The translations under genes and the position numbers were made by a program. A stretch of DNA of 64,000 nucleotides from a virus, in UHGV virus genome UHGV-2031204. One strand, written 5' to 3'. This document shows positions 16,966 through 62,452 of this stretch, piece by piece (position 1 is the first letter of the stretch; the number at the start of each line of letters is the position of its first letter). The notes under the pieces are model-generated. The model saw only the letters and a list, made by a program, of their open reading frames with translations, searched no databases and had not been told where the DNA came from.

Positions 16966-18231
16966 ATGGCGAATTTCTACAAAAACAAAATTGCTCGTGA
17001 GTCTATGGAGTCTACTTCTACTGTAGTTCCAGACGGCATCGAACTGCCAGCAGAATCCGTAGAAGGCACTCTGGCCGATATCGAGCATGACACCAAACCG
17101 ATCGAAGCTCTGGACGCTGACGCTGAACTGCTGGCAGAAGACGGCGACGAAACTGACGCTCAGCTGGATGTTCTGGATGAAGCTCAGGCTGCTGCTGACG
17201 GTGAAGGTGCAGGCGAAGACGGTGAAGAACCGATGGATGCCGAAGAAGATATGCCGGACGACGCTGCGACTGCGCTGGACGTTGCTCAGGAATCTATCCG
17301 TTCTCGTTGGAACTTCGAACACCGTTCTTCTGTTGCACACGAATCCTACGGTTCTCGTAACCGTCGTCAGGTTGCTCGTGAATCCCTGTGGGAAGACATC
17401 AAAGCCTTCCTGGGCCGTATTCTCGATTGGCTGAAAGAACAAGGCCGCAAACTGAAAGATCGCTGGCTGAAATTCCACAACCAGGGTAAATCTATTCAGG
17501 CACGTGCTAAGAAATACGATGAAGTTATTCGTAAGCTTGGCAAACAGAAGAAAGATGAGATCTCTGGTGGCTTTATCAAGTCTCTGTCTATCGACGGCAA
17601 GTTCGTCGGTGATAATATTCCGAAACTGAAAGGTATCCTTAACCAGGTCTCCTCGTTCTATAGCGCTAAGATGCCTGCCATGGCCGCTAAAGCTGCTGAA
17701 GTGGTTTCCGATGTTACCAAAGGTAATGGCGTTAAAGTTGAAAAACTGAAAGCCGACTTTACCGAACTGTCCAAACAAGACAGTCTCCAAAACTTCAAGC
17801 TCGGTAACATGGCGGTGAAAACCGAGTATGACAACGAAGGCGGCTTCAGCTCCACCTTTGTTGAAGCTGAAAACAGCGTTGAAACTAGCGTGAAAACTCC
17901 GTCTGTTGGCGAACTGGCCAAAATCAATGCTCTCTTCAACGAAGTGGGTAAACAGATTGAGAAGAACGTTCAGGATTATCGTAAAGTCGAAAGCGCGCGG
18001 AAAACCTTTGAAGATAATATCGATAAGCTCCTGAAAGAAGTCGATAAAGTTAAGATCGACGAAAAACCGGAACTGACCGAAGGTGTACGTGCTGCCCGTC
18101 GTTTCATCACCAGCGTTAACCAGGGTCTGTCTCTGGGTGAGAAGGTTATTGCTTCTACTCAGAAACACCTGGCCGGTGGTCTGAACGGTTACCTGAGTGC
18201 CGGTATCGGCGCTTACGAAAAATCTAAATAA
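16966..18231 (+). CDS. abundant protein, paralog B of a tandem pair (probable virion component)
   Basis: 421 aa; same codon bias and shared blocks as 15612-16883, including a long near-identical nucleotide stretch around 17531-17606. Confidence 0.9.
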   Translation: MANFYKNKIARESMESTSTVVPDGIELPAESVEGTLADIEHDTKPIEALDADAELLAEDGDETDAQLDVLDEAQAAADGEGAGEDGEEPMDAEEDMPDDAATALDVAQESIRSRWNFEHRSSVAHESYGSRNRRQVARESLWEDIKAFLGRILDWLKEQGRKLKDRWLKFHNQGKSIQARAKKYDEVIRKLGKQKKDEISGGFIKSLSIDGKFVGDNIPKLKGILNQVSSFYSAKMPAMAAKAAEVVSDVTKGNGVKVEKLKADFTELSKQDSLQNFKLGNMAVKTEYDNEGGFSSTFVEAENSVETSVKTPSVGELAKINALFNEVGKQIEKNVQDYRKVESARKTFEDNIDKLLKEVDKVKIDEKPELTEGVRAARRFITSVNQGLSLGEKVIASTQKHLAGGLNGYLSAGIGAYEKSK

Positions 18232-18249: not shown

Positions 18250-18297
18250 GAGAACCACCCTGTAATGGGGTGGTTCTCTCTTTTCTTTTTTTTTCGA
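18250..18297 (+). terminator. intrinsic terminator
   Basis: agagaaccaccctgtaatggggtggttctct followed by a long T-run. Confidence 0.75.
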
Positions 18298-18310
18298 TTA
18301 AAATAATTTT

Positions 18311-18334
18311 CAGATATATATTACCTAGGTGAGA
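18311..18334 (+). promoter_or_regulatory. conserved promoter-like motif, copy 1 (cagatatatattacctaggtgaga)
   Basis: Identical 24-mer recurs at 26567 and, with 2 mismatches, at 54090; always just after a terminator and about 50 nt before a start codon; followed by an inverted repeat gagattac/gtaatctc. Confidence 0.55.
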
Positions 18335-18384
18335 TTACACAGTAATCTCTTTACGACTTGTTTATTACGTTTAGGAGAAATATC

Positions 18385-19026
18385 ATGAGCCGCATTAATT
18401 TAACTGATTTTGTTGATGGTGTTGTGTCTACGGATAAAGGTGTTGTTACGATGGTGGCACCGAATAGTAAAGTTGTTACTTTAAATCCGGTAGAACTGAT
18501 TTCTATTTCTACCTGGTTGCGCTTACTTTCTGGTAAGAAACCTAAAGACCAAGCGAAGGGTGGCCTATTAGTTGGTACACGTGAGTTTGTTTTCAAAGAC
18601 ATAACCCAAGATAAACTGGACAGCATTGCTAAAGAACTGAACGGCAAGCATAAAACTCGCGACATCGGGTGTGCCGAATATGACGGAGTAACGTACCATG
18701 CGTTTCTTGATAGTCACGTAGCATTGCGTGAAAAAGAAAATGGGATGTACGATTCAGTTTGTTTCTTTCACTTAATCGCACCAACAGAAAACGAAGCTGT
18801 GTATGAAACCGTTGAAAAATCGGCGGAAGCTGTTATGGAAACGGTGTCAGAACTTATAGAAGGGATGAAAAGAATCCCACGTGTGTTGAAAGTTACTGAT
18901 GGGGCTTTCGATTGTTTTAAATTATTACCCCTAATAGCTAGTAAAGAATACGAAGATGAGAACACCTTCGGACTATTCGAAATTAGTCTTTCGGAAGCAG
19001 TTGTTACTTTCTTTGAAGATTTATGA
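18385..19026 (+). CDS. hypothetical protein
   Basis: 213-aa ORF; ATG at 18385 preceded by ttaggagaaa; the track start at 18358 lacks an RBS. Confidence 0.8.
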   Translation: MSRINLTDFVDGVVSTDKGVVTMVAPNSKVVTLNPVELISISTWLRLLSGKKPKDQAKGGLLVGTREFVFKDITQDKLDSIAKELNGKHKTRDIGCAEYDGVTYHAFLDSHVALREKENGMYDSVCFFHLIAPTENEAVYETVEKSAEAVMETVSELIEGMKRIPRVLKVTDGAFDCFKLLPLIASKEYEDENTFGLFEISLSEAVVTFFEDL

Positions 19027-26447: not shown

Positions 26448-26566
26448 TCCTAAACGACACGCAGAAGTCATTTAACCGTTAAGACGACTAATTACCCTTT
26501 AAAAAGAAAATTGCGTCAGAATGCGTTTTAGAGCGTTCTAGAGGGTATATGGATTCAAAAAGATTT

Positions 26567-26590
26567 CAGATATATATTACCTAGGTGAGA
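26567..26590 (+). promoter_or_regulatory. conserved promoter-like motif, copy 2 (cagatatatattacctaggtgaga)
   Basis: Exact copy of the 18311 24-mer, about 45 nt upstream of the small ORF at 26637. Confidence 0.55.
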
Positions 26591-26636
26591 GTTTACGTAA
26601 TACTCATTTATCGAATACCTAATTAGGAGTTATATC

Positions 26637-27699: not shown

Positions 27700-27947
27700 C
27701 GCAAATTCAACAACTTGGATTAAATAAAAGGCTTAAAGCCACTAACAATCATCGAGTACAGATCTTCACCGAAAGGAGAAGTAACTACTAAATAAAATAA
27801 AGGGGTGTGACAGCACCCCTTATCAAAGCTTTAACTTTTCGAAAAGAGAAGTTAAAGCAGGGTACGCTGTAGCACCAGCGTACCCTTTACAGCACCACCA
27901 CGTTTCCGTAGTGGATTTCTTTAATCACCCTACAAAGAGGGCTTACC

Positions 27948-28121
27948 ATGAACAATGGTTACTACTTTACTGACAAAATGCTTGCAGAACAGAGTGCAGC
28001 AAAGACCAATTTACAGCAACGTATCTACAAGTATAGTCAGCTCGGCATGGATAAACGGTTAAAACCGTCTACCAACCGTTTCACGCAGATATTCACCGAA
28101 AAGAGGAGTGAACACTACTAA
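27948..28121 (+). CDS. small protein (57 aa), cassette family member 1
   Basis: Below the ORF-track cutoff. ATG at 27948 preceded by aaagaggg; translation MNNGYYFTDKMLAEQSAAKTNLQQRIYKYSQLGMDKRLKPSTNRFTQIFTEKRSEHY; shares Q-R-I/M-x-x-Y-x-x-LG with the next small ORF. Confidence 0.5.
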   Translation: MNNGYYFTDKMLAEQSAAKTNLQQRIYKYSQLGMDKRLKPSTNRFTQIFTEKRSEHY

Positions 28122-28345
28122 CAAATAAAGAGGAGGCGTGTCAGCGCCTCCCCTCCTCGTACAGTAACCTGCCGAGATGGTGGTCGTAGGTATAATAAAA
28201 AGGGGTGCACCACCACCCCTTTTCTTAGCTTTAACTTTTCCGAAGAGAAGTTAAAGCAGTAGAGACTGTTCCATCAGTCTCTACTGTACGGTGACAACGC
28301 ATAAAGTTGTTGACGTTTTTACAACATTACAAAAGGTAATGAAAA

Positions 28346-28650: not shown

Positions 28651-30213
28651 TCAAAAGAGTTCGTCACCCATGCCGCCGGTAAATACGTTAATCGACGAGG
28701 CTGTTACAGTTTCTTCTTTATCACAATCCCATGGCAAAATGCCAACATCACGGAAAGGTATTACAGTATAATGATAAGCTTCTTTGGTATCAATAATGGT
28801 ACGGTGTTTACCGCGTTGTACTTCTAAATAGCTGTGTCCGCTGACGACACGTTTGTTAAAATACATCTCACCGTCAGCTTCGTTGTCTAAGCTAGAGCAG
28901 TTGTCGTAAAGACCACGACCAGGTAAGCTCTTACAGAAACTTGCTGGGTCGAGTGCTTTTAATTTTTTGCCTTCTGGTGAGATTTGGTGTGGTGCTAAGA
29001 GGAAACCACGATTACGTACCACTTGGATGTTTCGCGCGATACGATAAATTTCTTTAATGTCACTACCCGCAATACCGTTACCGTGCCCTGCTTTGCTGAT
29101 AGTACCGAAATAGTCTCCGCGTATTCCAGCTACATGATAACCTCGACGTTTTAGATCTAAAATCAAATCATTCAAATAGTGAATTTTAAAATCGGAGTTT
29201 GTGTGTTTTTGGAAAATATACTCCCAACCGTTTGCCCGCATTTTACTACAGAGGTAATCTGACATTTGTGCATTGTGTAGCGCTTTTTCTTCGTCAGTTG
29301 CCGTTTCAGGTGCAACCATTACCGGAGCTGTACCTTCAAAGTGTCCGTAAAGTGCTTGATACGCGTAAGCCAAGTTAACATCTAATTCGTTTTCTAAACT
29401 TAAATCCAGAATAACCGGTTGTAAGTCACCTTTAACATTTGCCATCACCTTTTCTGGGGTGTTGAATACAGGAATGCTAATAGAGAGCAATAAACTGAAT
29501 AATGACTTACAGTTAAAGGGTAGTGCGGGCATTAGCCAGAGTTCTTCGGTGATCCCTTTGTTACAGCCAAGCATTTGGTTAATTGCTTTCCACCCCGTAC
29601 GTAACCCATTACCTGCCGCTTTCTTACTGATAGAGTCGAATACATGTACGAAGGGTGCTTTATTGTCAGTAATCAATTCCCCTACCAGAGAAGGAATCTT
29701 ATTATGAGAGCGTTCACTGAACGTGGATAAGGTATCCTTAAGGTCGTTGAGCGCCGTTTGTAAATCAACACGCGTTTCAGTGCCGTTCAGTGCGCCTAAC
29801 GTACGACCCAATTTTTGTTTCAGTTGTACGCCTTGAATAGCTTGACGTAACTGAAAGTAGTATTGTGCTACTTGGCGATTAAGATGCTCGATGCGTGCTT
29901 CTGGTTCTTCTGGAATATCATCTTCCAGGAATTTGGTAATCGTATCGTATAGAGGACGTATTTGCGTAGTGGCCAGTTTCAAACGTTTCATGACGTTTGT
30001 GTGGTCGTAAGGCATACCGCCGTCTATGATGGATGTGATGATATCCTTGATTTCGACGAGGGCGGCACGTTCGTCACCTTCTTCTGCGTAATCAGGAAGC
30101 TTAGCCTCTAACAGCACTTTTCTTATGATGTCGTGGTCCTTTTCAGGATCGGTCAGAAGACTTTCAGCGTATAATGTGGCTAAGGCGGTTATCAACATCA
30201 TTTTGTTATTCAT
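28651..30213 (-). CDS. hypothetical protein (520 aa)
   Basis: Long minus-strand ORF; no recognisable catalytic motif found by eye. Confidence 0.8.
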   Translation of the reverse strand: MNNKMMLITALATLYAESLLTDPEKDHDIIRKVLLEAKLPDYAEEGDERAALVEIKDIITSIIDGGMPYDHTNVMKRLKLATTQIRPLYDTITKFLEDDIPEEPEARIEHLNRQVAQYYFQLRQAIQGVQLKQKLGRTLGALNGTETRVDLQTALNDLKDTLSTFSERSHNKIPSLVGELITDNKAPFVHVFDSISKKAAGNGLRTGWKAINQMLGCNKGITEELWLMPALPFNCKSLFSLLLSISIPVFNTPEKVMANVKGDLQPVILDLSLENELDVNLAYAYQALYGHFEGTAPVMVAPETATDEEKALHNAQMSDYLCSKMRANGWEYIFQKHTNSDFKIHYLNDLILDLKRRGYHVAGIRGDYFGTISKAGHGNGIAGSDIKEIYRIARNIQVVRNRGFLLAPHQISPEGKKLKALDPASFCKSLPGRGLYDNCSSLDNEADGEMYFNKRVVSGHSYLEVQRGKHRTIIDTKEAYHYTVIPFRDVGILPWDCDKEETVTASSINVFTGGMGDELF

Positions 30214-30763: not shown

Positions 30764-33058
30764 ATGAAAGATACCCGAATCTCTAATCTGGAGAAACTCG
30801 TACAAGCTGGTAACTCGCTGGTACAAAGCGTCATTAGTAACAACAGTGCTGGCGAAATGTGGAACACCATCGTTGCTGGTGAGTCTGTACGTAGCAACAC
30901 GAAAGTTTTTGGTACCCTGCGTGACGATGCTGCACAGCACTACGCAAACGCGTTTGCTGGCGGTAAGAAAATGTCCCACGCTGCGGAAGTTGCTTCTGCA
31001 ATGATTCTGGGTGCTGCTGGTCACGGTATGGACCTGCAAGAAAAAGTAGCGCAAGAATACGCTAAGCCAGAATTCCATAGCCGTTTTAACCTGGACGTTG
31101 CGATTCCTGGTTCCCAAGCTGGTAACGGCGACTGGGGCAAAGAGCGTATGGTTGTTGCTCAGGAATACTACACCAACAAAGATTACGACAAAAACCTGGG
31201 TCTGACCTGGACGCTGAACGTACGTGCTCTGGAAACTCAGTCTCGTTTTGCTGAGACTCTGTTCCCGACCATCACCGTTGACACCAACGATGTTGGTATT
31301 ACCGTACGTACCAAAGTGACCACCGTTTCTCGTGGTGTCATGCACGCGTTACTGACCAAAGACGTTGTTGAAGATCATCGTCGTAACCTGCACGAAGCGC
31401 TGACTGACCACACCGTTCTTCAGGACGAAGCGATCAACATCGTTCCTTACGTAATGGAAACCGGTGAAAACGCTGAATACTTCGTAAGCGAAGATCTGGT
31501 ACCGAACGAATCTGTTCGTCTGGGCCGCGTACCTCCGTACCCGACTAACTACCTGAGCTTTGCTAAAGACACTCTGAACCTGTTCCAGCTGTCTGCGCAT
31601 CCGGGTATCGTTCAGGAAGGTTACGACGAAACTGATGAAATCGCACCGGGTTGTGCTCTGGGCAGCCTGCTGATTTCCGTACGTAAACCGACCGAAGAAG
31701 CGAAAGCAGGTAAATTCATCAAACTGCACGTTCGTGACATGCAGTTCGCAACCTTCCAGCGTCCTGCTGAAGGTGATGGTCGTGAGCTGGTACTGCAATT
31801 CCGTCGTACTGCGTTCTCTCTGAATGCGAAAACTACCGACTGGAAAGGCGAAGCTATTCCGGCACTGAAATCACTGGAACAGAACTCCTACACCCTGCGT
31901 TATGTGATCACCATCAACATGTCTCTGTTCACTACCGGTCAGTTCGGTGGCAAAGTTGACATCGCTGGTCACAAACTGGAAATCGAAGGTCTGTACGACG
32001 CTACCGGTAACAAAGTTGATACCAAATCTGGTACCGGCAAAGTTATCCTGGACGGTCTGAAACTTGAACTGATGGGCTGGCGCTTCGATGGTACTCGTAC
32101 CAACGAAAACCGTCGTACCCAGGGTCTGCTGCTCGACCCAATCTGGGAACAAGAAAACTACAAGCTGCAATACGGTTCTCCGATTCTGACCAAGTCTCCG
32201 GTTGGCGTTGAATACGACGATACCGAACGTCTGGACGACCTGATTTCCGCAGTTAACATCCGTAACGAACAGCTGGCTATCACTCAGACGCTGTCTTACA
32301 CCGAAGCGGTACGTAACGCTGCTGCAAGCATGATCACTCCGTGGGACAAACCGGCCATTCGTGGTCTGGGCCGTCACTGGGTTGCTCCGTGGTTCAAAGA
32401 GTCTGACTACAACGTTGATGAAGTTGTACAGTCCCTGGATACCAAAGATGCACTGATCAACGCTCGTCAGGGCCTGGTACAGCGTATCGGTAATCAGGTA
32501 ACTCAGGCTATCCAGGAATCTCGCTTCATTCCTGCGCTGCGTCTGTACACTGCCGATCCGGACATTCTGCCGAAAGTTGTTATTGCAACTGACGAACCGA
32601 CTGCATCTATGCTGCTGCTGGTACAGGGCGACCAACGTCTGCTGGGCGATCGCTACGAATACGAAGTGATCACCACCAACGATGACCGCTGGCGTATCTA
32701 CAACGCAGCTGACGGTTCCTGGACTCGTCGTCTGCAATGGTTCCTGAAAGTTCCGACTGCGGACGATGGTTCCTACAACGTGCTGAACTGGGGTAACCAC
32801 TTCTGGTCTCCGATCATGGTTACCAACATCAACATTCAGCGTAACGGTTCTACCTCTAAAGAGCTGGCCGTACAGCCGCGTAACGCGCACATCTGCCACT
32901 GCCCGATCACTGGTCTGATCTGGGTTAAAGGCATCACCAAACTGGTTGAAGAAAAACTGGCTTACAATGTTTCTGTTGAACAGAACGGTCAGAAACAAAC
33001 CGAAGGTGGTGTAGCAGGTAACGTTGCTGGCGAAGGCAAAGCTGCTGCTGGTAAGTAA
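30764..33058 (+). CDS. highly expressed 764-aa protein; candidate major capsid protein (alternatively tail sheath or phage-nucleus shell protein)
   Basis: Very strong host-optimised codon usage over the whole ORF, unlike neighbouring genes; size compatible with the large capsid proteins of jumbo myoviruses; terminator follows. Function is inferred, not motif-based. Confidence 0.6.
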   Translation: MKDTRISNLEKLVQAGNSLVQSVISNNSAGEMWNTIVAGESVRSNTKVFGTLRDDAAQHYANAFAGGKKMSHAAEVASAMILGAAGHGMDLQEKVAQEYAKPEFHSRFNLDVAIPGSQAGNGDWGKERMVVAQEYYTNKDYDKNLGLTWTLNVRALETQSRFAETLFPTITVDTNDVGITVRTKVTTVSRGVMHALLTKDVVEDHRRNLHEALTDHTVLQDEAINIVPYVMETGENAEYFVSEDLVPNESVRLGRVPPYPTNYLSFAKDTLNLFQLSAHPGIVQEGYDETDEIAPGCALGSLLISVRKPTEEAKAGKFIKLHVRDMQFATFQRPAEGDGRELVLQFRRTAFSLNAKTTDWKGEAIPALKSLEQNSYTLRYVITINMSLFTTGQFGGKVDIAGHKLEIEGLYDATGNKVDTKSGTGKVILDGLKLELMGWRFDGTRTNENRRTQGLLLDPIWEQENYKLQYGSPILTKSPVGVEYDDTERLDDLISAVNIRNEQLAITQTLSYTEAVRNAAASMITPWDKPAIRGLGRHWVAPWFKESDYNVDEVVQSLDTKDALINARQGLVQRIGNQVTQAIQESRFIPALRLYTADPDILPKVVIATDEPTASMLLLVQGDQRLLGDRYEYEVITTNDDRWRIYNAADGSWTRRLQWFLKVPTADDGSYNVLNWGNHFWSPIMVTNINIQRNGSTSKELAVQPRNAHICHCPITGLIWVKGITKLVEEKLAYNVSVEQNGQKQTEGGVAGNVAGEGKAAAGK

Positions 33059-33115: not shown

Positions 33116-33240
33116 TCTATTATTTTTTGGATAGATATTATTAAAGGGAGACGGCCAGTTGGTTTTAAAGGAGTATGTATGGAAAAAATACAGTTTAAAC
33201 TAAAGATATGTGTCATCATTAAAATTTAGCTTGGGTTCCC

Positions 33241-52654: not shown

Positions 52655-52742
52655 ACCCTAAATTTTATTACAGATTGATATTATCAATGTGACAACCGTA
52701 GTGAGTCGGTAACTCACCAATTTAAAAAAAGAGAGATAAATT

Positions 52743-54050: not shown

Positions 54051-54088
54051 GGTACCACCCAACGGTGGTACCTATATTTTATTTTTTC
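54051..54088 (+). terminator. intrinsic terminator
   Basis: ggtaccacccaacggtggtacc followed by a T-rich tract. Confidence 0.75.
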
Positions 54089-54089
54089 T

Positions 54090-54113
54090 CAGATATATTT
54101 TACTTAGGTGAGA
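54090..54113 (+). promoter_or_regulatory. conserved promoter-like motif, copy 3 (cagatatattttacttaggtgaga)
   Basis: Matches the 18311/26567 24-mer with 2 mismatches; directly after a terminator; followed by inverted repeat agagtta/taactct; about 50 nt before the HTH gene start. Confidence 0.5.
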
Positions 54114-54163
54114 GTTATGATTAACTCTTTACACCGACTTGTTAACCTAAAGGAGTATTTACA

Positions 54164-54523
54164 ATGGCTTACAATCACAATTCCATCGTTCTGGCAAAAC
54201 GTAAATTCGGTCTTCACTTGTCTTACGTAATTCGTCATTTGACCACAAAAGACATTACCCAGCGTGAACTTGCCCAGCTTGCGAAAGTTTCACAACCTGT
54301 TATCTCGTCTATTAAGAACGATCACTCAGAACGTTTAAGTTTACCGATTATGATGAAAGTTGCTGATGCGATTCGTCTGAAATACCAGATTAGTTTTAAT
54401 TCCGTTAAGGGTCGTTGCTCAGTAACCGTTCACGTAGAGTCCGCGTTAGACTACGTTGCAAACACGTCCATTAAACGCACCACGAAGAATGTGCGTTTTA
54501 TCACTAACACCGCAACACACTAA
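54164..54523 (+). CDS. XRE-family helix-turn-helix DNA-binding protein (putative transcriptional regulator)
   Basis: ITQRELAQLAKVSQPVISSIKNDHSE fits the Cro/C1-type HTH pattern (Q-x-x-LA-x-x-x-x-VS-x-x-x-IS-x-x-E). Confidence 0.55.
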   Translation: MAYNHNSIVLAKRKFGLHLSYVIRHLTTKDITQRELAQLAKVSQPVISSIKNDHSERLSLPIMMKVADAIRLKYQISFNSVKGRCSVTVHVESALDYVANTSIKRTTKNVRFITNTATH

Positions 54524-55311: not shown

Positions 55312-56310
55312 ATGGCTTTTAGGATGATTATAAAACATACCGCCACAGATTTAACAGTAGGTCGGTTAGCACGTAGAGATATTCGCAACCCTCAACTTCA
55401 GGCATGTTTATCGGGCCCTAACGGTGCTGTGATTCGTGAGGCGTTGTGCAATAGTGAACTGAATACGTTCTCTTTACAAAAAGGAAAAACAATTCAAGGG
55501 TTTATCATCACAAAACACATTTACGGTGACCCAACGTTACACTGCTTGTATATGCATGAAATTGTACCGGGCTGTTTGAACAAACTGAACCTACTATTGG
55601 TACTCGACTATACCGGTTTTACGTATCTTAATCGAATCGCCAGTGGTGTAGAAGAAATCGCCGAACTTAATGACTTAGGATTTAAACACACCCGCACTAC
55701 GTACCGTTTAGGTACACGCTCGTTGTTGGATATCGCTCTACCAACAAACGTGAAGAACGTCTCCGGCGATTTTTATAAAGAGTTAACCGCCGCACAACGC
55801 GAACAGCTTATGTTGCTTTTGGGTACGAGCGTCGTTGAAAACATCAACGCTGACCCTGTGGGCCGCACACGACAAATAATGCCGCAAGTCGAAACGTTGG
55901 TGGAGCTAGTACGCCACGTCAACCACCACACTTACGTTTGGATGGACGCTAACGATGTTGTGGGTGTGGTGCAAGTTAAATTGCGTAATCTTAACGAGTG
56001 TGAATTAAAAGCCATTGCGGTAAATGAAACACATCGTGGTCGTGGTATCGGACGGACTTTGTTGTATCGTGCTCTACAGATTGCTTCGACAACAGCGGCA
56101 CCATTAGAGATAGGGTGTTTCAATAACAACGCACCGTTTAGACACTTGGCCGTCGATTTATTTAAATTTCGACCTTTCGAATACGAATTTGTTTTAGTGC
56201 GCGACGAAAACGTCGTCAGTTGGGAGCGTCAGAAAAATCATGTCAAGTTGGTGTTAGACGACGAAGTGTCATCGTTACAAGGCGGATATAATGCGGAAAC
56301 CAATTATTAA
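55312..56310 (+). CDS. two-domain protein with C-terminal GNAT acetyltransferase domain
   Basis: C-terminal region LKAIAVNETHRGRGIGRTLLYRALQIAS is GNAT motif A-like; the N-terminal ~170 residues have no motif I recognise; 3' end overlaps the dam start by 20 nt. Confidence 0.5.
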   Translation: MAFRMIIKHTATDLTVGRLARRDIRNPQLQACLSGPNGAVIREALCNSELNTFSLQKGKTIQGFIITKHIYGDPTLHCLYMHEIVPGCLNKLNLLLVLDYTGFTYLNRIASGVEEIAELNDLGFKHTRTTYRLGTRSLLDIALPTNVKNVSGDFYKELTAAQREQLMLLLGTSVVENINADPVGRTRQIMPQVETLVELVRHVNHHTYVWMDANDVVGVVQVKLRNLNECELKAIAVNETHRGRGIGRTLLYRALQIASTTAAPLEIGCFNNNAPFRHLAVDLFKFRPFEYEFVLVRDENVVSWERQKNHVKLVLDDEVSSLQGGYNAETNY

Positions 56311-57106
56311 GTGGATGGGTGGGAAAACACGCGTTTTAGGGGAATTACAAAAGGTCTTACCTAAACGTACAACCTTTGTAGAACCGTTTGTGGGTGCAGG
56401 GTCTGTTTTCCTAAATACGAATTACAGCCGGTATATTTTATCGGATTCTAACCCCGATTTGATACGCTTACTTTGTGTTGCGCGTGAACAGCCTGAAGAA
56501 CTGATCGCCGCGTCGCAGCCGTTGTTCTTAGACGGTAATACCGCCGTAAAGTATATGGAACGTCGTGAGCTCTTTAATAGCGGTAAATCGATGTCAGAAG
56601 TTGAACGGGCAGCGATGTTTTTATACTTAATGCGTCACGGCTATAACGGGATGTGTCGCTATAACAGTAGTGGTGGGTTCAATGTTCCGTTTGGTCGTTA
56701 CCCGAATGGGGTTTATTACCCATTAGAAGAAATTCGGGATTGGGCTAAACGTTGCGCAGAAGTTGATTATCTGGAAATTGTTTGTGAGGACTTTCGTTCT
56801 GTATTAGCGCGGACACCTGAGGATGCTGTGATTTATGCTGATCCTCCTTATATTCCGTTATCGGATACCGCGAAACATGCGCAATACCACCGTAAAGAAT
56901 TCTCACAAACGGATCATCGAGAATTAGCCAAGTTACTACAGCAGCAGGTGGAACGTGGCAACAGCGTCGTGCTGTCAAATGCAGACACCCTGCTCACCCG
57001 AGAAATTTATTACGGTTTTGAGTGGCGCAGTATTGAGGTCGGTCGCTATATGGGTGCGTCTGGTGCCGCTCGGAAAACAGTGACTGAACTACTGGGAGTG
57101 CTCTAA
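56291..57106 (+). CDS. dam: DNA adenine (N6) methyltransferase, Dam family
   Basis: KWMGGK, EPFVGAGSVFLNT, LYLMRHGYNGMCRYN..GGFNVPFGRY and the catalytic DPPY are all present and collinear with E. coli Dam (comparison from memory). Confidence 0.9.
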   Translation: MRKPIIKWMGGKTRVLGELQKVLPKRTTFVEPFVGAGSVFLNTNYSRYILSDSNPDLIRLLCVAREQPEELIAASQPLFLDGNTAVKYMERRELFNSGKSMSEVERAAMFLYLMRHGYNGMCRYNSSGGFNVPFGRYPNGVYYPLEEIRDWAKRCAEVDYLEIVCEDFRSVLARTPEDAVIYADPPYIPLSDTAKHAQYHRKEFSQTDHRELAKLLQQQVERGNSVVLSNADTLLTREIYYGFEWRSIEVGRYMGASGAARKTVTELLGVL

Positions 57107-57888: not shown

Positions 57889-58116
57889 ATGGAAATCAAA
57901 CGTATTGTAACCAAAGACAAAAAGATTACTTATGTTGCAGGCGATAACGAATTCTCGGCGGTTATTAATGACGAGAACGTGCTGATTATCGGTTATCCAG
58001 GTAAAGTCATTACTCGTAGCCATCAGCGCGTGATTGACAAACTCATCGCCAAAGCAAAAGCACGCGATGGTGTTGGTTCAGTACAAACCCATACCGGGTT
58101 AACGTTGGCACTCTAG
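57889..58116 (+). CDS. hypothetical small protein
   Basis: 75-aa ORF with aaggacattga RBS. Confidence 0.65.
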   Translation: MEIKRIVTKDKKITYVAGDNEFSAVINDENVLIIGYPGKVITRSHQRVIDKLIAKAKARDGVGSVQTHTGLTLAL

Positions 58117-58154
58117 CCAGCAGGTAATATGACCTCTTAACTGGAGACTTAGAG

Positions 58155-58661
58155 ATGAAAGAGACTCTGGATTTTAATCAGCTGGAGCAGCACGATTTTG
58201 ATCTCGGTGTTCGCAACTTAGAAGCTGACTACGAAACACGTTGTAAAGAATTCTTTAATCGCTACGGGCAATTGATTACCGGGGCGTCTGAAGACACCGA
58301 ATTCTCGTTAGACGATTTCGAAAAGATTCTGTCTTGCTTTATCACCGACAGCTTAGCGAAACAGGCGTTGCTGGTAGAACAGAACCTGCAAATGGTGGAG
58401 CCTACGGATGCTCACGCCGTACTAAAAGAATCCATTATTCCGAATGACGAAATTATGGATGCGGTAGCAGGTATTCGCGGTACGTTCGACACAGCTGTGG
58501 AAGACTATACCGAACAGCTTCGTGAGTCTGGGTTAACGTTGTGTGCACCTGCGGGCGAACAGTTACCTTCTGAAGAAGAAACGGAAGAAGCACGCAGTCG
58601 CTTAGCGCGCTATGTGATTACTTCTATTTTAGTAGACGATCGCGAAGAAAACGTACTGTAA
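58155..58661 (+). CDS. hypothetical acidic protein
   Basis: 168-aa ORF, D/E-rich; terminator follows. Confidence 0.75.
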   Translation: MKETLDFNQLEQHDFDLGVRNLEADYETRCKEFFNRYGQLITGASEDTEFSLDDFEKILSCFITDSLAKQALLVEQNLQMVEPTDAHAVLKESIIPNDEIMDAVAGIRGTFDTAVEDYTEQLRESGLTLCAPAGEQLPSEEETEEARSRLARYVITSILVDDREENVL

Positions 58662-58665
58662 ACTT

Positions 58666-58706
58666 CCCCTCTCTCCGTTTGGAGAGAGGGAGTATTTATT
58701 TTTACG
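58666..58706 (+). terminator. intrinsic terminator
   Basis: cccctctctccgtttggagagaggg followed by a T-rich tract; identical stem-loop recurs at 59713. Confidence 0.75.
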
Positions 58707-58759
58707 CTTTCGTGTCTAATTATGCACACGTAAACAAAATTAATTGAGGAACAGCTTAA

Positions 58760-59077
58760 ATGTGGTTAAGTGCGATTCACCGTGATTTACCAAAACAAGA
58801 AATGGTATTTACCGTTGGGGAACCAGCAACTGTAGTAGGTGTTGCTAAGTTCGAAAGGGTAGAAGAAGGTCAATTCGTCGTAGTGGACGACAACGAAAAC
58901 GAATTCATGCTGTTCCACCCTGAGGTCGATACCTCTGAAATCTGTGAGGGTTCTCTTTTGTTATCCTGGCAAAACCCTGAAACTAAAGAATGGAAGTGGT
59001 GCGTTGCTAAACCGACAAATGAAGCCGGAACCGCATACGTGTTTGGGGAAATTTATGTCGAGCCAGAACCACACTAA
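58760..59077 (+). CDS. hypothetical protein
   Basis: 105-aa ORF with gaggaacagc RBS. Confidence 0.7.
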   Translation: MWLSAIHRDLPKQEMVFTVGEPATVVGVAKFERVEEGQFVVVDDNENEFMLFHPEVDTSEICEGSLLLSWQNPETKEWKWCVAKPTNEAGTAYVFGEIYVEPEPH

Positions 59078-59363
59078 TGCTGATGAGACTAATTTACAGC
59101 GTTTGCAACGGGTACTAACTGCACCGCTAGGTGGTGAGATTCACGAACGTTGGGTAATTGCGAGGGTAGTAGAAATTGACTATTCTCGAGATCAGTTGCT
59201 GTTAAATAACTGCTCGACGAACGTGCCTTTCACGTTATCGCGTGCTGTATTCCGCCTTACGCCCAACGTTGATGAAATACTGACTATTGACAGGAAGCTT
59301 CTATCGATAGAGCTTCAGCATTTCCCGCTACCTGGTAAGTCGGTTAATATTGCGCTGTGTTAA
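59055..59363 (+). CDS. hypothetical protein
   Basis: ATG at 59055 overlapping the end of the upstream gene; the upstream in-frame extension to 58944 is probably not used. Confidence 0.55.
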   Translation: MSSQNHTNADETNLQRLQRVLTAPLGGEIHERWVIARVVEIDYSRDQLLLNNCSTNVPFTLSRAVFRLTPNVDEILTIDRKLLSIELQHFPLPGKSVNIALC

Positions 59364-59380
59364 TGACAGTCTAAAAAACT

Positions 59381-59405
59381 TAAGATATATTTCATCTATG
59401 TGAGA
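59381..59405 (+). promoter_or_regulatory. degenerate copy of the promoter-like motif, overlapping a perfect palindrome
   Basis: taagatatatttcatctatgtgaga shares the GATATAT and GTGAGA blocks; GTGAGAATTCTCAC (59398-59411) is a perfect 14-bp palindrome; about 30 nt before the ATG at 59437. Confidence 0.35.
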
Positions 59406-59436
59406 ATTCTCACTTAACTAAATGGAGTAATCTAAA

Positions 59437-59706
59437 ATGGCTAAGATTTACATTGTTGAGAAACGTGCGGCTAATGTTCTTTCTTATTACGAAGAAGGTA
59501 AGCCTGAGAAAATCAAAACACTCAAACTCGACGGGTATGATGTGAAGAGTTTACGTAAGGGTGTGAAGATTACCTTTAAAGGTCTGACTCGCGTAAGTAA
59601 CTTACACATTGTTAAAGCCGATGGTACGATGGTTGCGTTAGCACCTGTCAGTGCTGCGAAAACGACAGCAGGTCGTGGCTGCTACGGTAGCAGTCGTAAG
59701 ATTTAA
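59437..59706 (+). CDS. hypothetical protein
   Basis: 89-aa ORF with aatggagtaatc RBS; terminator follows. Confidence 0.7.
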   Translation: MAKIYIVEKRAANVLSYYEEGKPEKIKTLKLDGYDVKSLRKGVKITFKGLTRVSNLHIVKADGTMVALAPVSAAKTTAGRGCYGSSRKI

Positions 59707-59712
59707 GCAGTG

Positions 59713-59752
59713 CCCCTCTCTCCGTTTGGAGAGAGGGTACTTTTATTTTTAT
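59713..59752 (+). terminator. intrinsic terminator (copy of the 58666 hairpin)
   Basis: cccctctctccgtttggagagaggg followed by a T-rich tract. Confidence 0.75.
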
Positions 59753-59764
59753 TCGAGGTGTGTG

Positions 59765-60253
59765 ATGACAACAGTTTTAGTAACAAAGGATTACATTTTA
59801 GCCGATCGGTTGGTTGACTACGGCGGTACAGTTAAAGCGGCACCTAAATTACACAAGTACAAAAACAAATTCGTTGTTTATACTGGGGAACGCATATTGG
59901 ACTCGGATCTCTGGAAAAAGACGATAATGGTCGCAGCAGAAAAATATTTGATTGAAGAAAAGCGAGCCAAGATTGAAGGGTTATTTAAAGATCTTATCGA
60001 AAAAGAACAGTTTTACGATCAGATTATTATTTTTACAGCCGAGGAAACACACTGGCTCGGGCTGCTAGAGGGTAAATTTGAATCTCGTGTACTGAATAAA
60101 AACACGGTTTGGGCAACGGGTTCAGGTCAAGCTTTTGCTCGTGCGGCCTGGGCATCTGGTATAAGCGAAAAGAATATTATTCCTTTAGTAGGATCTATTG
60201 ATACCGCCACATCGGAGACGTATGACTTATTTTACAGGAAGCACTTACGATGA
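59765..60253 (+). CDS. hypothetical protein
   Basis: ATG at 59765 just after the terminator; the track start at 59651 would read through the terminator hairpin. Confidence 0.75.
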   Translation: MTTVLVTKDYILADRLVDYGGTVKAAPKLHKYKNKFVVYTGERILDSDLWKKTIMVAAEKYLIEEKRAKIEGLFKDLIEKEQFYDQIIIFTAEETHWLGLLEGKFESRVLNKNTVWATGSGQAFARAAWASGISEKNIIPLVGSIDTATSETYDLFYRKHLR

Positions 60254-60771
60254 AGATAAACGCTGTCTTAATTGGCGATGAAATATTCGTTAATACAAAA
60301 ACACAACATTTGTATTACGAAGGTATTACTGTAATAGACGATTATTACGGTAAGTACGGTTGGTGGATTCCGTCCCCTAATTCTTTACGATTAGAAGAAG
60401 CATTAACTGCTGAAGAGAACAAACTGGAAAAGGAGTGGTGCTATATCAGTTCCGTAATTGACGTCAGTGGTCGAATTAAAGATGTTTACTGGGCTAAGGA
60501 ATCAGGGTGGCGGGTTACACTTCACCAATCTGCACCAGTAAGACTGCTGTACGACCACTCGGACACATCGGAGTTAGCGTTTACCATTGAGACGCTCTCG
60601 CTACGTAAAGATTTAGATAACGTGGGTAAAGGGAAGTGGTCTATTGAACGCGTGGAGGAGATTCTCAGTCACTTTAAAGCCAACAACAAATTTAAACCTT
60701 GGTGTACATTACCTGAGTTAGTAGAAGAGTTGAAAAAGCGGGATTGCAAACCGCTACCTTTTAACCCGTAG
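60250..60771 (+). CDS. hypothetical protein
   Basis: 173-aa ORF; start overlaps the upstream stop. Confidence 0.8.
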   Translation: MKINAVLIGDEIFVNTKTQHLYYEGITVIDDYYGKYGWWIPSPNSLRLEEALTAEENKLEKEWCYISSVIDVSGRIKDVYWAKESGWRVTLHQSAPVRLLYDHSDTSELAFTIETLSLRKDLDNVGKGKWSIERVEEILSHFKANNKFKPWCTLPELVEELKKRDCKPLPFNP

Positions 60772-60816
60772 TCTTTTTTACAACTGCGGCTATTTTAATG
60801 ATTAGGAGAAAAGAAA

Positions 60817-61281
60817 ATGAAATGTTTTGAATCTAAAGAAATTGTTGAGTTGTTTAAGCAGCGTGAGAAAACCGCTTTCCGTGACCTGTACGATTCTGAT
60901 TATCGTCCACTGTTTGCGGTATTGTTGAAACTGGATAAAGAACCCGAAGTCGCGTTAGCAGAGGTACAGCACCACCACGTCAGTTTCGTATTAACCGAAA
61001 ACATGAGCCGGTGGGTAGATGCTATGCTGATCCGTATCGGGCTCTTGGAAACGCCGCACCGTTGGGAAGTGGTTATTCAGAAATCATTATTCCCACGGGA
61101 AGACATTTTTAACAAATATCGTCCGAAACAGTATTACAACCACGACGGGTCGCCAAAACGTGCTTTTCTGGCACCACAACACTTCGTAACCTACGTAACG
61201 TTGCGTTACAAAGACACCGTGGTACCGTTTGACACCTACCTGGAAATGCGTGAGATAATTTTAGGGAAGAATCCGTCATGA
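60817..61281 (+). CDS. hypothetical protein
   Basis: 154-aa ORF with ttaggagaaaag RBS. Confidence 0.8.
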   Translation: MKCFESKEIVELFKQREKTAFRDLYDSDYRPLFAVLLKLDKEPEVALAEVQHHHVSFVLTENMSRWVDAMLIRIGLLETPHRWEVVIQKSLFPREDIFNKYRPKQYYNHDGSPKRAFLAPQHFVTYVTLRYKDTVVPFDTYLEMREIILGKNPS

Positions 61282-61760
61282 TTCAATTTTCTGTTGACGC
61301 AGAAAGATTGGCGTCATTTAAAGAGCGTGCTCAGTTTGCAGTTAAAAACGGCTATATTGAAAAAGGAGTTCGCGACACCTGTAAACTAATCAACGACCAT
61401 CCGCACCTGGCGACAATGTGGAGTTGTGAAGGTCACGGTATGTATTCTAAGTCACCTGGAAATTTGCATATCGTTTTTGCAACAGACGCTATTGGAAGTC
61501 AGATTCCAATGCAGGTTATGACCGAACTTGCAAAATCAGATTTACCGAATTTCTGGAATCTTAGTTTGTGTCGTCTTTATATACCTGACGCATACACGGA
61601 TTTGGTATATCTTGAACCTGACTATGGATTGAATACCGACGACACTTCTTACTGGTCTTGGAAAATCGGATACATGTGCTTGATTAATCGCCCTGCGTTA
61701 GTTGAGACACGTCAAGCTCTTTATAAAGCATTTCACACCGTATTAGTTGAGAATAAATAA
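61278..61760 (+). CDS. hypothetical protein
   Basis: 160-aa ORF; overlapping start/stop. Confidence 0.8.
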   Translation: MIQFSVDAERLASFKERAQFAVKNGYIEKGVRDTCKLINDHPHLATMWSCEGHGMYSKSPGNLHIVFATDAIGSQIPMQVMTELAKSDLPNFWNLSLCRLYIPDAYTDLVYLEPDYGLNTDDTSYWSWKIGYMCLINRPALVETRQALYKAFHTVLVENK

Positions 61761-62452
61761 TGGCTACCAAACAAAAGAAACCTCGTAACAAAAAGTATAA
61801 CCCGAAAGCGGCTGCTAACCGTACTGCGCACACCATTGCTGAGAATGCGCTAAACCGCATTACTTTCGTCGGTAGCTCAATTCGTCCTATCGGCCCGTAC
61901 GCAGGTCGTGGTTTCCAGTTTACAACGTCACCGCGTATGCGCATGGCAGCCACCGACATGTTAATCGGTGGTTTGTTTGACGAACCGCGTAACTGGAAAC
62001 TTTGGGTTGCACATCTGTACGAAACAGATAACGGTGTACAAGCAGAAACCATCGTTGCAACGCTTGACGACTACACGTTAAGTGATTTCTGTCAACACGG
62101 TGACAAAATCATCAAGTCGCTACGTGAGACGGAAGAAAACTATTTCGGTTACGCTTTCGTTGCTGCACCTAACGAACGTTATGATTTCGACCAGGGAGAA
62201 GAACGCTTACTGGAAAACTTCATGCATTCGGGTCTGTTAGACAAATCCTTACACTTACCTGAAGAAGAACTGATGGTTTCGCGTAAGGATATGGTAACGT
62301 TGCTGTTAGCCGATCGTGGTCGTTTTGATGTTACCGAATCCCATGTACGTAAAGTACAGAAACTCGTGGATAAGGTAGACGAAACTGACCTGGACACTAG
62401 CGAAGCCGCAACCCGTATCCAATCGGTAGTCAATCAGGAAGAGGATTACTAA
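61760..62452 (+). CDS. hypothetical protein with basic N-terminus
   Basis: 230-aa ORF; N-terminus MATKQKKPRNKKYNPK. Confidence 0.8.
   Translation: MATKQKKPRNKKYNPKAAANRTAHTIAENALNRITFVGSSIRPIGPYAGRGFQFTTSPRMRMAATDMLIGGLFDEPRNWKLWVAHLYETDNGVQAETIVATLDDYTLSDFCQHGDKIIKSLRETEENYFGYAFVAAPNERYDFDQGEERLLENFMHSGLLDKSLHLPEEELMVSRKDMVTLLLADRGRFDVTESHVRKVQKLVDKVDETDLDTSEAATRIQSVVNQEEDY

Follow-up and report, generated by a model that had tools for sequence, protein, structure and literature searches.

An AT-rich motif that recurs between the genes of this phage runs, ahead of a small open reading frame, into a perfect palindrome. The question raised by the locus is whether this palindrome is an operator placed over a promoter or belongs to the design of the promoter itself. 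The initial annotation had leaned towards the former, reading the site as a degenerate motif copy under operator control. The features on which the question turns, numbered by their positions in the window (the whole 64,000-nucleotide stretch of DNA that was analyzed), are as follows.

59380-59405, plus strand: variant promoter copy (TTAAGATATATTTCATCTATGTGAGA), predicted to span -22 to +4 (repeat family D1, leave-one-out weight matrix)
59402, plus strand: predicted transcription start G, 6 nt past the AT-rich core (analogy with AR9, phiKZ and phiR1-37; PMC5312081)
59400-59413, plus strand: perfect 14-bp palindrome GTGAGAATTCTCAC, -2 to +12 (from the sequence)
59424-59427, plus strand: Shine-Dalgarno GGAG, 9 nt ahead of the ATG (read from the sequence)
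59437-59706, plus strand: 89-aa gene, phrog_12339, ortholog of SPN3US ACQ60_gp154 (homology searches)
59714-59753, plus strand: intrinsic terminator with a 10-bp stem containing 7 G-C pairs, then a T-run (terminator scan; repeat family D13)

The motif string taagatatatttcatctatgtgaga lies at 59381-59405, as first reported, and the start codon had likewise been placed correctly at 59437, 23 nt downstream of the palindrome's end. The palindrome is real and perfect, but it occupies 59400-59413 rather than 59398-59411; it sits 2 nt further right and overruns the end coordinate originally given by the same 2 nt. The promoter's conserved 3' end (-2 to +4) supplies the left arm of the palindrome, GTGAGA, and the right arm is TCTCAC (59408-59413). 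The +1 position is assigned to G59402 by analogy only.

Judging from its genes, the window derives from a jumbo phage of the phiKZ/SPN3US type: it encodes a PhiKZ-type capsid protein (PhiKZ_MCP match, E 3e-209), its gene order is that of SPN3US from gp225 to gp149, and it carries the following gene, which by homology shows that the phage encodes its own split multisubunit RNA polymerase.

1393-2712, plus strand: RNA polymerase beta-like subunit (phrog_2962, E 3e-169)

When 58000-62000 was compared with a phage collection by megablast, the sole match covered 176 bp at 79.5% in two Salmonella jumbo phages; because this search came back almost empty, relatives of the window were gathered through motif and protein searches. 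A tRNA scan found none. With the Rfam 15 covariance models, the window gave no match at gathering score, and 59300-59800 gave one match at chance level (E 0.77).

The conserved motif is defined by six copies found in a repeat search, as 39-mers starting at 18296, 26552, 33113, 52656, 54075 and 59367. All six lie on the coding strand in intergenic DNA, with a Shine-Dalgarno sequence and an ATG 31-50 nt downstream, and four come after a terminator. The five copies other than the one in question are listed below.

18309-18349, plus strand: strong promoter copy with a +1 hairpin, GAGATTAC-aca-GTAATCTC (18331-18349; -8.2 kcal/mol, z -3.3)
26565-26605, plus strand: strong promoter copy whose +1 inverted repeat is weak and imperfect (repeat family, motif scan)
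33126-33151, plus strand: variant promoter copy (GGATAGATATTAT...GGGAGA), directly past the major capsid gene (repeat family)
52669-52717, plus strand: variant promoter copy with its hairpin, GTGAGT-cggta-ACTCAC, shifted to +11 to +27 (52701-52717; repeat family, folding)
54088-54129, plus strand: strong promoter copy with a +1 hairpin, GAGAGTTA-tgat-TAACTCTT (54110-54129; -7.5 kcal/mol, z -2.8), driving an HTH gene

These six copies stand more than 14 bits above background. Scored with a weight matrix built from the other five, the 59380 copy reached 27.0 bits, compared with 12.2 bits for the best non-member on either strand, and just two of its positions (ATATATTAC -> ATATTTCAT) go beyond the variation seen among the other copies. 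Repeat-family membership and the leave-one-out score thus bear out the proposal that 59380-59405 shares its promoter class with the remaining copies; it is a genuine but divergent, lower-consensus member. The spacing GATATAT-N10-GTGAGA was also tried as a definition of the family and proved a misfit, as a search allowing 2 mismatches gave one chance match only.

On comparison of consensus sequences, the family fits the experimentally defined early (virion RNA polymerase) promoter of jumbo phages, ATATATTA[C/T]-(6N)-G+1. Its core, ATATATATTAC-(6N)-G, agrees with the mapped AR9 early consensus, AAATATATATTAT-(6N)-G+1 (PMC5312081), and with the phiKZ form TATATTAC-(6N)-G, a G occupying the next position at all of the phiKZ TATATTAC-(6N) sites. 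Such a motif has been described upstream of early operons in every RNA-polymerase-encoding jumbo phage (PMC7598289). The exact strong motif was found here in 31 stretches from about 12 jumbo-phage contigs of 107-246 kb, plus one stretch that is a 7-kb contig.

The ribosome-binding site and start codon follow 31 nt past the 59380-59405 copy. A terminator scan of 58600-59800 returned just 58667-58690 and 59714-59737, and a near-identical copy of the 59714-59753 terminator is present at 58667-58704, supporting the view that the promoter copy heads a small one-gene unit bounded by a terminator. The 89-aa product had no match in a Pfam search, its PHROG family is without known function, and its single-sequence AlphaFold model is all-beta (pLDDT 58). 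A complete relative, QZLY01000003.1 (222,824 bp), encodes a protein 99% identical to it. The palindrome was also considered as a terminator or attenuator, a candidate that was rejected: it is followed by TTAACTAAA with no T-run, and it is absent from the terminator scan.

A host sigma-70 promoter can be drawn over the same DNA (ATGACA-17 nt-TATATT, 59363-59391), which would start at about 59398-59400, so that the transcript would open with the entire palindrome. Although this candidate matches 10 of 12 consensus positions at a 17-nt spacing, and a start at 59400 would give the full 5-bp hairpin, two such sites occur in this 1.2 kb against 1.8 expected. Moreover, the -35 hexamer reads TAACGG in relatives L033, L034, L042 and L044-L046, in which the phage motif is invariant, and the other five motif copies have no -35 element. 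The independence of phiKZ-type phages from host polymerase (PMC7598289) counts against it as well, and we consider host transcription of this site highly improbable.

Taken alone, the palindrome is within chance. The window contains 6 perfect 14-bp palindromes, compared with 4.6 +/- 2.1 expected from first-order Markov simulations; the palindrome sequence with up to 3 mismatches has 3 matches in the window against 3.07 expected; and no second copy within 2 mismatches was found there. Read as RNA, it would form GUGAG-AAUU-CUCAC (-4.7 kcal/mol), a hairpin of 5 bp if transcription starts at G59400. From G59402, only GAG-AAUU-CUC is left (3 bp, -2.1 kcal/mol), which is probably too weak to protect a 5' end, and the folding z of the whole leader is -0.5.

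What lifts the palindrome above chance is its position at the start site and its promoter-class context, since start-anchored inverted repeats are found at 52% of promoter copies versus about 5% of controls. Specifically, a stem without gaps, 7 bp or longer and anchored at -2 to +3, is carried by 24 of 46 distinct promoter copies from related phages; among 2056 other GAGA sites the figure is 5.1%, and among tail-shuffled sequences it is 6.1%. The 46 copies include orthologs from related phages and are not independent, so that enrichment p-values are inflated. In this stem, the initial bases of the transcript (GAGA...) are matched by a ...TCTC further downstream, and the mean folding energy of +1 to +30 is -5.4 kcal/mol, against -2.2 kcal/mol in shuffled sequences. 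In a covariance-model alignment of 41 distinct sequences, itself fitted to the model structure, 89% of cells were paired versus 76.3 +/- 1.6% after shuffling (0/500). Pairing was kept by compensatory change, with a covariation score of 0.275 against 0.124 in shuffled alignments (0/500) and at most 0.078 in slid registers, and double compensatory changes occurred in 5 of the 8 stem pairs. The complete genome of SPN3US has 7 strong (class A) copies, each with a stem of 7 bp or more. Inverted repeats that reuse the GAGA/GTGAGA end are therefore the rule among strong promoter copies, and the 59380-59405 copy is not peculiar in having one. The hairpin is not obligatory: a convincing anchored stem is missing from some 40% of the promoter copies, those at 26565 and 33126 among them. 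No description of the start-site hairpin or the motif string was found in the searchable jumbo-phage transcriptome literature, nor did that literature yield a transcriptome for the SPN3US-like clade.

These repeats probably act as an RNA stem-loop at the 5' terminus. At the first stem pair, 28 sequences have G(+1)-U and 13 have G-C, and G.U outnumbers A.C by 23:6 on distinct stems (p 0.002), both of which favor sense-strand RNA over DNA. However, the G.U bias is the only discriminator between RNA and DNA at hand, and it falls to 9:4, which is not significant, without the terminal +1 pair. This leaves some room for an element working in initiation and not on the finished message, be it a hairpin in the non-template strand or a cruciform, either of which would ease melting, a hairpin in the nascent RNA helping the virion polymerase to let go of the promoter, or a start-proximal pause or attenuator (hairpin plus TTTT/TTAAC). 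The stem is tied to the conserved +1 to +4 of the promoter, its end is nearly fixed at +17 to +24, and the sequence after it is usually T-rich (bases 1-2 are T in 19 of 29 copies), all of which would suit such an element; hairpin-dependent promoters also have a precedent in the virion polymerase of phage N4. In phiKZ, 5'UTR transcripts that end prematurely are abundant (PMC10914365), which points in the same direction. Nevertheless, the stems are rich in A and T, the T-runs are short, the scan of 58600-59800 shows no terminator beyond the two canonical ones, and mapped AR9 early promoters work without such hairpins (0-1/8, versus 2/7 in phiKZ; first 50 kb of each genome). A role confined to transcription mechanics or DNA is thus, in our judgment, quite unlikely.

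The operator proposal points to a protein encoded elsewhere in the window.

54164-54523, plus strand: Cro/C1-type HTH protein (phrog_7126, E 1e-31; PF13744, PF13443, PF01381)

This protein has relatives in 61 jumbo-phage records. As an operator, the duplex palindrome (-2 to +12) would bind a dimeric regulator, for example this HTH protein, and close the promoter after the early phase. Its perfect dyad symmetry over the predicted start is the classical position for a repressor, and the gene for an early-expressed HTH protein lies 5 kb upstream, itself preceded by a strong promoter copy. Neither arm varies among 10 relatives, the lone change being central and of a kind tolerated in many operators too, and with a start at 59402 the RNA hairpin would be too weak to matter, leaving room for a role at the DNA level. 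Yet the site does not recur in the window within 2 mismatches, nor is it present at the HTH gene's own promoter, and its left arm is merely the conserved promoter end of all strong copies. Furthermore, in the five distant relatives whose orthologous promoter was read (SPN3US, STsAS, pEa_SNUABM_29, Asesino and phiEaH2), this promoter has no GTGAGA...TCTCAC palindrome.

The arms are 2 nt apart at 59400-59413 and 10 nt apart in L012/L014/L022 and in SPN3US at ~167.5 kb, where the same design takes the forms GTGAGAGT-loop6-ACTCTCAC-TTAAC and GTGAGATG-acgacc-CATCTCAC, respectively. Identical arms around a 10-nt spacer with an extended, covarying stem are incompatible with a dimer site of fixed geometry; variable arm spacing together with a covarying inner stem fits a nucleic-acid hairpin from +1 rather than a protein operator. 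With no recurrence of the site in addition, the suggestion that the palindrome makes the 59380-59405 copy specially regulated gained no support: on the sequence comparisons, the operator idea is weakened and unsupported, and we regard it as unlikely.

The 59380-59405 copy is the weakest motif-bearing match of the covariance model (19 bits, E 0.09), which aligns it with the inner stem deleted. Class leaders have most of their ATGs at +49 to +58; here the ATG is at +36, making the leader about 15 nt shorter than the class norm. In the 10 relatives, the promoter core and both palindrome arms are invariant, and the sole substitution in the palindrome is a central A->G in L044, in the would-be loop; with invariant arms, the locus itself holds no covariation information. 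Third-codon-position identity among these relatives drops to 64%, and those at 64-69% retain 65-66 of 66 leader positions. As the whole 66-nt leader is equally conserved, the palindrome is not singled out. Upstream of the leader, the relatives change suddenly to different sequences, in the manner of a recombination joint, and the identity of the leader could stem from recent recombination at a module boundary. In Asesino, the orthologous promoter carries a different inverted repeat.

These features would also be expected if the promoter alone were functional and the right arm were either the remnant of a longer hairpin after internal deletion or a chance complement, its conservation resulting only from constraint on a short leader or from recent recombinational exchange. 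The chance frequency of perfect 14-bp palindromes, the short leader with its deleted inner stem, the weakness of the remaining RNA hairpin, and the uniform conservation of 66 nt next to an abrupt upstream switch all speak for such a relic. Against it, the retention of the leader despite diverged third codon positions indicates selection on the leader, if not on the palindrome specifically, and GTGAGA...TCTCAC pairs were confined to promoters in all of the DNA examined. We consider a relic improbable on the whole, while allowing it appreciable weight.

The account that we favor, with moderate confidence, is that the locus is a weak early-promoter variant with a shortened start-site hairpin, which would serve to stabilize the 5' end and not as an operator. 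This account builds on the membership in the motif family, the enrichment and covariation that the +1 inverted repeat shows across the class, and the conservation of the region; from these we infer the polymerase, the start site, folding of RNA rather than DNA, and the stabilizing function. The virion-packaged multisubunit RNA polymerase of the phage would transcribe its early genes, recognizing 59380-59405 as an early-type promoter with an AT-rich core at about -10, six variable bases and the conserved start GAGA; the site would drive the 89-aa ORF at 59437-59706, with the terminator at 59714 closing the unit. The palindrome would be no separate element, its left arm being the promoter end and its right arm, TCTCAC, the complement common to most strong copies. 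Across the class, the arms are predicted to fold the first ~20 nt of the transcript into a stem-loop beginning at the 5'-terminal nucleotide. Judging by the ompA, papA and T7 gene-10 leaders, this stem-loop would most likely keep RppH and RNase E off the 5' end, giving longer-lived early messages. At 59400-59413, the shortest form of the hairpin, the inner stem and loop appear to be missing, which brings the arms together into a perfect palindrome.

More tentatively, in SPN3US-like jumbo phages of enterobacteria, which presumably form a nucleus, early promoter and exact-+1 hairpin may co-evolve as a single module with uniform geometry, its stem ending near +20 and most start codons at +49 to +58; we would rate this possibility as speculative. 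If so, the hairpin would be a dedicated mark on transcripts of the virion polymerase, which might protect the first cytoplasmic messages, offer a handle to a factor that comes from the phage or is associated with the ribosome, or act as a device for polymerase escape, and shortened forms such as the present palindrome would tune stability or timing gene by gene. To our knowledge, the virion polymerase has not been characterized biochemically, and its early promoters are known just as short AT-rich logos; the timing and protection of the first transcripts in giant phages are partly understood. A covarying start-site hairpin would thus add a second, testable component to jumbo-phage early promoters and would provide a compact promoter-plus-leader cassette for phage engineers. 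For annotation, operator should not be the default label for a palindrome that overlaps GTGAGA at the end of such a promoter. Because SPN3US and several Erwinia relatives are culturable, the prediction is directly testable.

Among known systems, the early promoters of AR9 and phiKZ are close in design. Both they and the present family have an AT-rich core of ~10 nt near -10 with nearly the same letters (ATATATTAC), followed by six variable bases and a G start; both lie ahead of operons, often right after a terminator, with T-rich sequence upstream (here in the strong copies), and both go with split beta/beta' polymerase subunits. The present clade differs in being conserved through +4 (GGTGAGA) and in having the +1 hairpin complement at most strong copies; as AR9 and phiKZ show it weakly or not at all, the hairpin is not shared by jumbo-phage early promoters in general. 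The 59380-59405 copy departs from the core at two positions, and its promoter activity and timing are predictions. In AR9, a single core change sufficed to silence a predicted promoter (PMC5312081).

With Cro/CI-type operators, the locus shares a 14-bp dyad over the predicted transcription start and a Cro/C1-type HTH gene nearby. It differs from them in that the site is single, an autoregulatory site is lacking, one arm is promoter consensus, and the spacing of the arms varies elsewhere.

The hairpin has counterparts in bacterial and T7 leaders, as 5'-terminal stem-loops reportedly stabilize E. coli mRNAs (Emory 1992; Bouvet & Belasco 1992; both cited in PMC3997798). Like the ompA, papA and T7 gene 10 leaders, those of this class would have a stem within 1-2 nt of the 5' end and a single-stranded spacer before the ribosome-binding site. 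The T7 gene 10 leader starts GGGAGACC..., and the conserved initially transcribed bases of its promoter form the 5' arm, as they do here. Unlike in those leaders, the stems of this class are AT-rich, at about -7 to -8 kcal/mol, that of the present locus being much weaker, and the polymerase would be a multisubunit virion enzyme instead of a T7-type or host one. Phage N4 likewise packages its polymerase in the virion and has early promoters associated with a short inverted repeat. There, however, the hairpins are DNA structures located upstream of the start and serve a single-subunit polymerase, whereas here they lie downstream of +1 and would be transcribed by a multisubunit enzyme.

The palindrome GTGAGAATTCTCAC ahead of the 89-aa ORF is ordinary as an individual feature. 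It is most plausibly the shortest version of a class-wide start-site hairpin with covarying stems, an inverted repeat that pairs the first transcribed bases (GAGA...) with a downstream complement. The 25-nt string quoted in the initial annotation was recovered at 59381-59405 and the ATG at 59437; the palindrome is perfect, as reported, but occupies 59400-59413, 2 nt to the right of the 59398-59411 assigned to it. The following elements lie downstream:

59424-59427, GGAG ribosome-binding site
59437-59706, 89-codon ORF
59714-59737, canonical terminator with T-run, 3' of the 89-codon ORF

Because this ribosome-binding site and ORF are followed by a terminator, and a near-identical second terminator stands at 58667-58690, the element heads a one-gene transcription unit. 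With their T-runs, the two copies of terminator CCCCTCTCTCCGTTTGGAGAGAGGG (58666-58704 and 59713-59751; 90% identical, 1047 nt apart) flank a region made up of this unit and the sequence upstream of it; in the related phage locus L034, the stem is kept and the loop reads TAGC instead of GTTT. The 89-aa protein gave no match in a Pfam search and falls in a PHROG family of unknown function, with an all-beta predicted structure of low confidence. The palindrome centre is an EcoRI site (GAATTC, 59404-59409), lost in relative L044; the window shows no depletion of such sites (20 versus 18 expected). A DNA methyltransferase gene (phrog_56, 56291-57106) lies 2.3 kb upstream of the palindrome.

The type of genome is indicated by three further genes:

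1393-2712, phage RNA polymerase beta-like subunit (E 3e-169)
28651-30213, divergent DnaB-like ATPase
30764-33058, major capsid protein of the PhiKZ family (profile match, E 3e-209)

Gene order in the window matches that of the Salmonella phage SPN3US from gp225 to gp149, nucleotide similarity to deposited phages is negligible, and copies of the 89-aa protein that are 84-99% identical occur on metagenomic contigs of 220-229 kb. Together with the capsid and polymerase matches, these observations assign the window to the SPN3US-like jumbo phages that encode their own multisubunit RNA polymerases, and among them to a lineage not described before. Several repeats were also seen: the adjacent paralogous ORFs 15612-16883 (423 aa) and 16966-18231 (421 aa), positional counterparts of two SPN3US 'internal head protein' genes, have repeats in common at 77-91% identity (D2, D5, D6, D19); a unit of about 400 nt recurs within 27790-28280 (D10, D16; 77-82% identity), each copy with a small hairpin rich in G+C, AAAGGGGTG....CACCCCTT, in a region where no ORF reaches 70 aa and which corresponds to the part of SPN3US that holds the tiny ORFs gp195 and gp194, ahead of the DnaB-like helicase; and TTGCAGTCGGCGAATCTGCCCG is a perfect 22-nt direct repeat (13250-13271 and 13304-13325, 54 nt apart; D12) within ORF 12922-14028.

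A repeat search defined a motif family of six copies in the window (consensus TTCAGATATATATTACCTAGGTGAGA). Weight-matrix scanning returned exactly these six, with the next best site more than 20 bits lower, and in a leave-one-out matrix the 59380 copy scored 27.0 bits versus 12.2 for the best non-member on both strands, bearing out its proposed membership in the same promoter class as the other copies, which can now be sharpened to a jumbo-phage early-type promoter. All six lie on the coding strand with a Shine-Dalgarno sequence and ATG 31-50 nt downstream, and four are directly preceded by a terminator hairpin and T-run. Their core, ATATATATTAC followed by six variable bases and G, matches both the experimentally mapped AR9 early consensus, AAATATATATTAT-(6N)-G+1 (PMC5312081), and the phiKZ sites, TATATTAC-(6N)-G. 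An AT-rich motif centred near -10 lies upstream of early operons in every RNA-polymerase-encoding jumbo phage and is the virion-polymerase early promoter wherever tested (PMC7598289). The exact strong motif occurs at 31 places on about 12 jumbo-phage contigs of 107-246 kb. By analogy with these systems, and given its placement before genes and occurrence in jumbo-phage contigs, the motif is probably this clade's early, virion-polymerase promoter, and transcription is predicted to start (+1) at the first G of GAGA, which is G59402 in the query. A sigma-70-like ATGACA-17-TATATT overlapping the motif was rejected, its -35 hexamer not being conserved among relatives whereas the phage motif is.

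Compared position by position, the query leaves the range of family variation at only two core positions (ATATATTAC to ATATTTCAT). SPN3US holds similar variants, such as GATGTCATCT at 161.9 kb, and variant CAGATAGATGTTATT precedes the orthologous 89-aa gene in SPN3US, STsAS, pEa_SNUABM_29 and Asesino; phiEaH2 has no promoter variant before its ortholog. These variant cores thus suggest that the gene is habitually served by a sub-consensus promoter. In AR9, one changed core base was enough to inactivate a predicted early promoter (PMC5312081), so the query copy is a putative promoter of uncertain strength and timing. Another variant core, AGATAGATATTATCT, is itself nearly palindromic, mostly lacks a +1 hairpin and is found ahead of genes for RNA polymerase beta-like proteins (gp232, with the site at 28988, is one); window sites 33126 and 52669 are of this type. 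In SPN3US it forms both-strand pairs 20 nt apart (15613-/15633+, 72683-/72703+ and 191601-/191621+), which are candidate bidirectional promoters because two of the three lie between divergently transcribed genes.

The palindrome had been proposed as a possible operator controlling a version of this promoter, with the following protein as candidate binder:

54164-54523, Cro/C1-type HTH protein, behind a strong promoter copy

That upstream copy makes the protein plausibly early-expressed. The operator reading nonetheless lacks support, and binding to the palindrome, though conceivable, seems unlikely. Within the window no second copy of the palindrome occurs, not even at the promoter of the HTH gene itself, one arm is the promoter consensus, and the same arms recur elsewhere at other spacing with covarying inner stems. 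Moreover, the HTH protein is conserved in 61 phage records (at the same genomic position where checked), yet the orthologous promoter in the five distant relatives compared has no such palindrome. A terminator scan ruled out a terminator, and an Rfam search matched the palindrome to no family.

Alone, the palindrome is no more than chance: the window holds six perfect 14-bp palindromes where Markov simulations give 4.6 ± 2.1, and near matches are no more frequent than expected. Across 46 distinct promoter copies from 34 related loci and the window, most strong copies are followed by the complement of their own first transcribed bases, as in GAGATTAC-aca-GTAATCTC (18331) and GAGAGTTA-tgat-TAACTCTT (54110) in the window, or GAGATTGC-attg-GTAATCTT and GTGAGAGT-tcagtt-ACTCTCAC elsewhere. 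Of the 46 copies, 52% have an ungapped stem of 7 bp or more that is anchored at -2..+3; the corresponding figures are 5.1% for 2056 other GAGA sites from the same DNA and 6.1% with tails shuffled, all independent of any model-fitted alignment. For +1..+30, folding energy averages -5.4 kcal/mol versus -2.2 when shuffled. Nine copies of the same geometry served to build a covariance model, which aligned 45 matches (41 distinct rows); in these rows, with the caveat that orthologous promoters are not independent and the alignment is fitted to the model, 89% of cells are paired versus 76.3 ± 1.6% shuffled (0/500), the covariation score is 0.275 versus 0.124 shuffled (0/500) and at most 0.078 with 3' partners slid, and double compensatory changes are seen in five of the eight pairs. 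Across the complete genome of SPN3US, 7/7 strong copies have such a stem (7 bp or longer), which most GATAGATATTAT variants lack. Leader geometry is uniform, with the hairpin ending at +17..+24 and most ATGs at +49..+58. Many strong-copy leaders (e.g., L001, L005, L017, L018, L028, and window 18350-18385 and 54130-54163) also carry a CGAC[TC]AT motif (..TCGACTATTAATCTAAAGGAG..) between hairpin and ribosome-binding site; the query does not.

The query's arms, GTGAGA and TCTCAC, are those of GTGAGAGT-loop6-ACTCTCAC-TTAAC at an orthologous promoter in the window's own clade (L012, L014, L022) and of SPN3US GTGAGATG-acgacc-CATCTCAC, with no further such pair in all DNA examined; TTAAC follows the right arm in the query as well. 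The query has no inner stem or loop, its arms are 2 nt apart, and its leader, with the ATG at +36, is shorter by about 15 nt; the covariance model aligns it with these parts deleted, at 19 bits, the lowest among motif-bearing matches. RNA starting at 59400 is predicted to fold as GUGAG-AAUU-CUCAC (-4.7 kcal/mol), and from the predicted start, 59402, only as GAG-AAUU-CUC (-2.1).

Among ten relatives (L032-L034 and L040-L046), third-codon-position identity in the gene falls to 64%, and the promoter core and both palindrome arms are invariant. The leader is identical at 65-66 of 66 positions in the three relatives counted, among them L034, which diverges most within the first set of relatives; the sole palindrome change is a central A to G in L044, at a would-be loop position. 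This shows that the whole leader is constrained or recently exchanged; conservation is not peculiar to the palindrome, and the query arms show no covariation. Directly upstream, ORF 58944-59363 is replaced by unrelated sequence in some close relatives (L033, L034, L042 and L045). The sequences become identical again at a sharp point some 35 nt ahead of the promoter core, which suggests a boundary between modules, or a recombination joint, at the promoter and leader.

As a mechanism, we favour a 5'-terminal RNA stem-loop that would protect early messages from 5'-end-dependent decay. Consistent with RNA, stems begin at the predicted +1, the first pair being G-U in 28 cases against 13 with G-C, and G.U outnumbers A.C on distinct stems by 23:6, although the ratio of 9:4 without the terminal pair tempers certainty. 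The stem could conceivably act instead in initiation, in escape or as a start-proximal pause. Jumbo-phage transcriptome papers and a motif-string literature search yielded no description of a start-site hairpin, and it is not general to jumbo-phage early promoters: unlike this clade, AR9 lacks it at annotated early promoters (0-1/8) and phiKZ has it at only 2/7 sites. The class-wide hairpin is of more interest than the single palindrome, and culturable relatives allow testing. Stem-loops at the 5' terminus reportedly protect the ompA and papA leaders (Emory 1992; Bouvet & Belasco 1992; both listed in PMC3997798). The T7 gene-10 leader is also protected by a 5' stem-loop, and there, as in this clade's hairpins, the 5' arm derives from a conserved initially transcribed sequence, GGGAGA.
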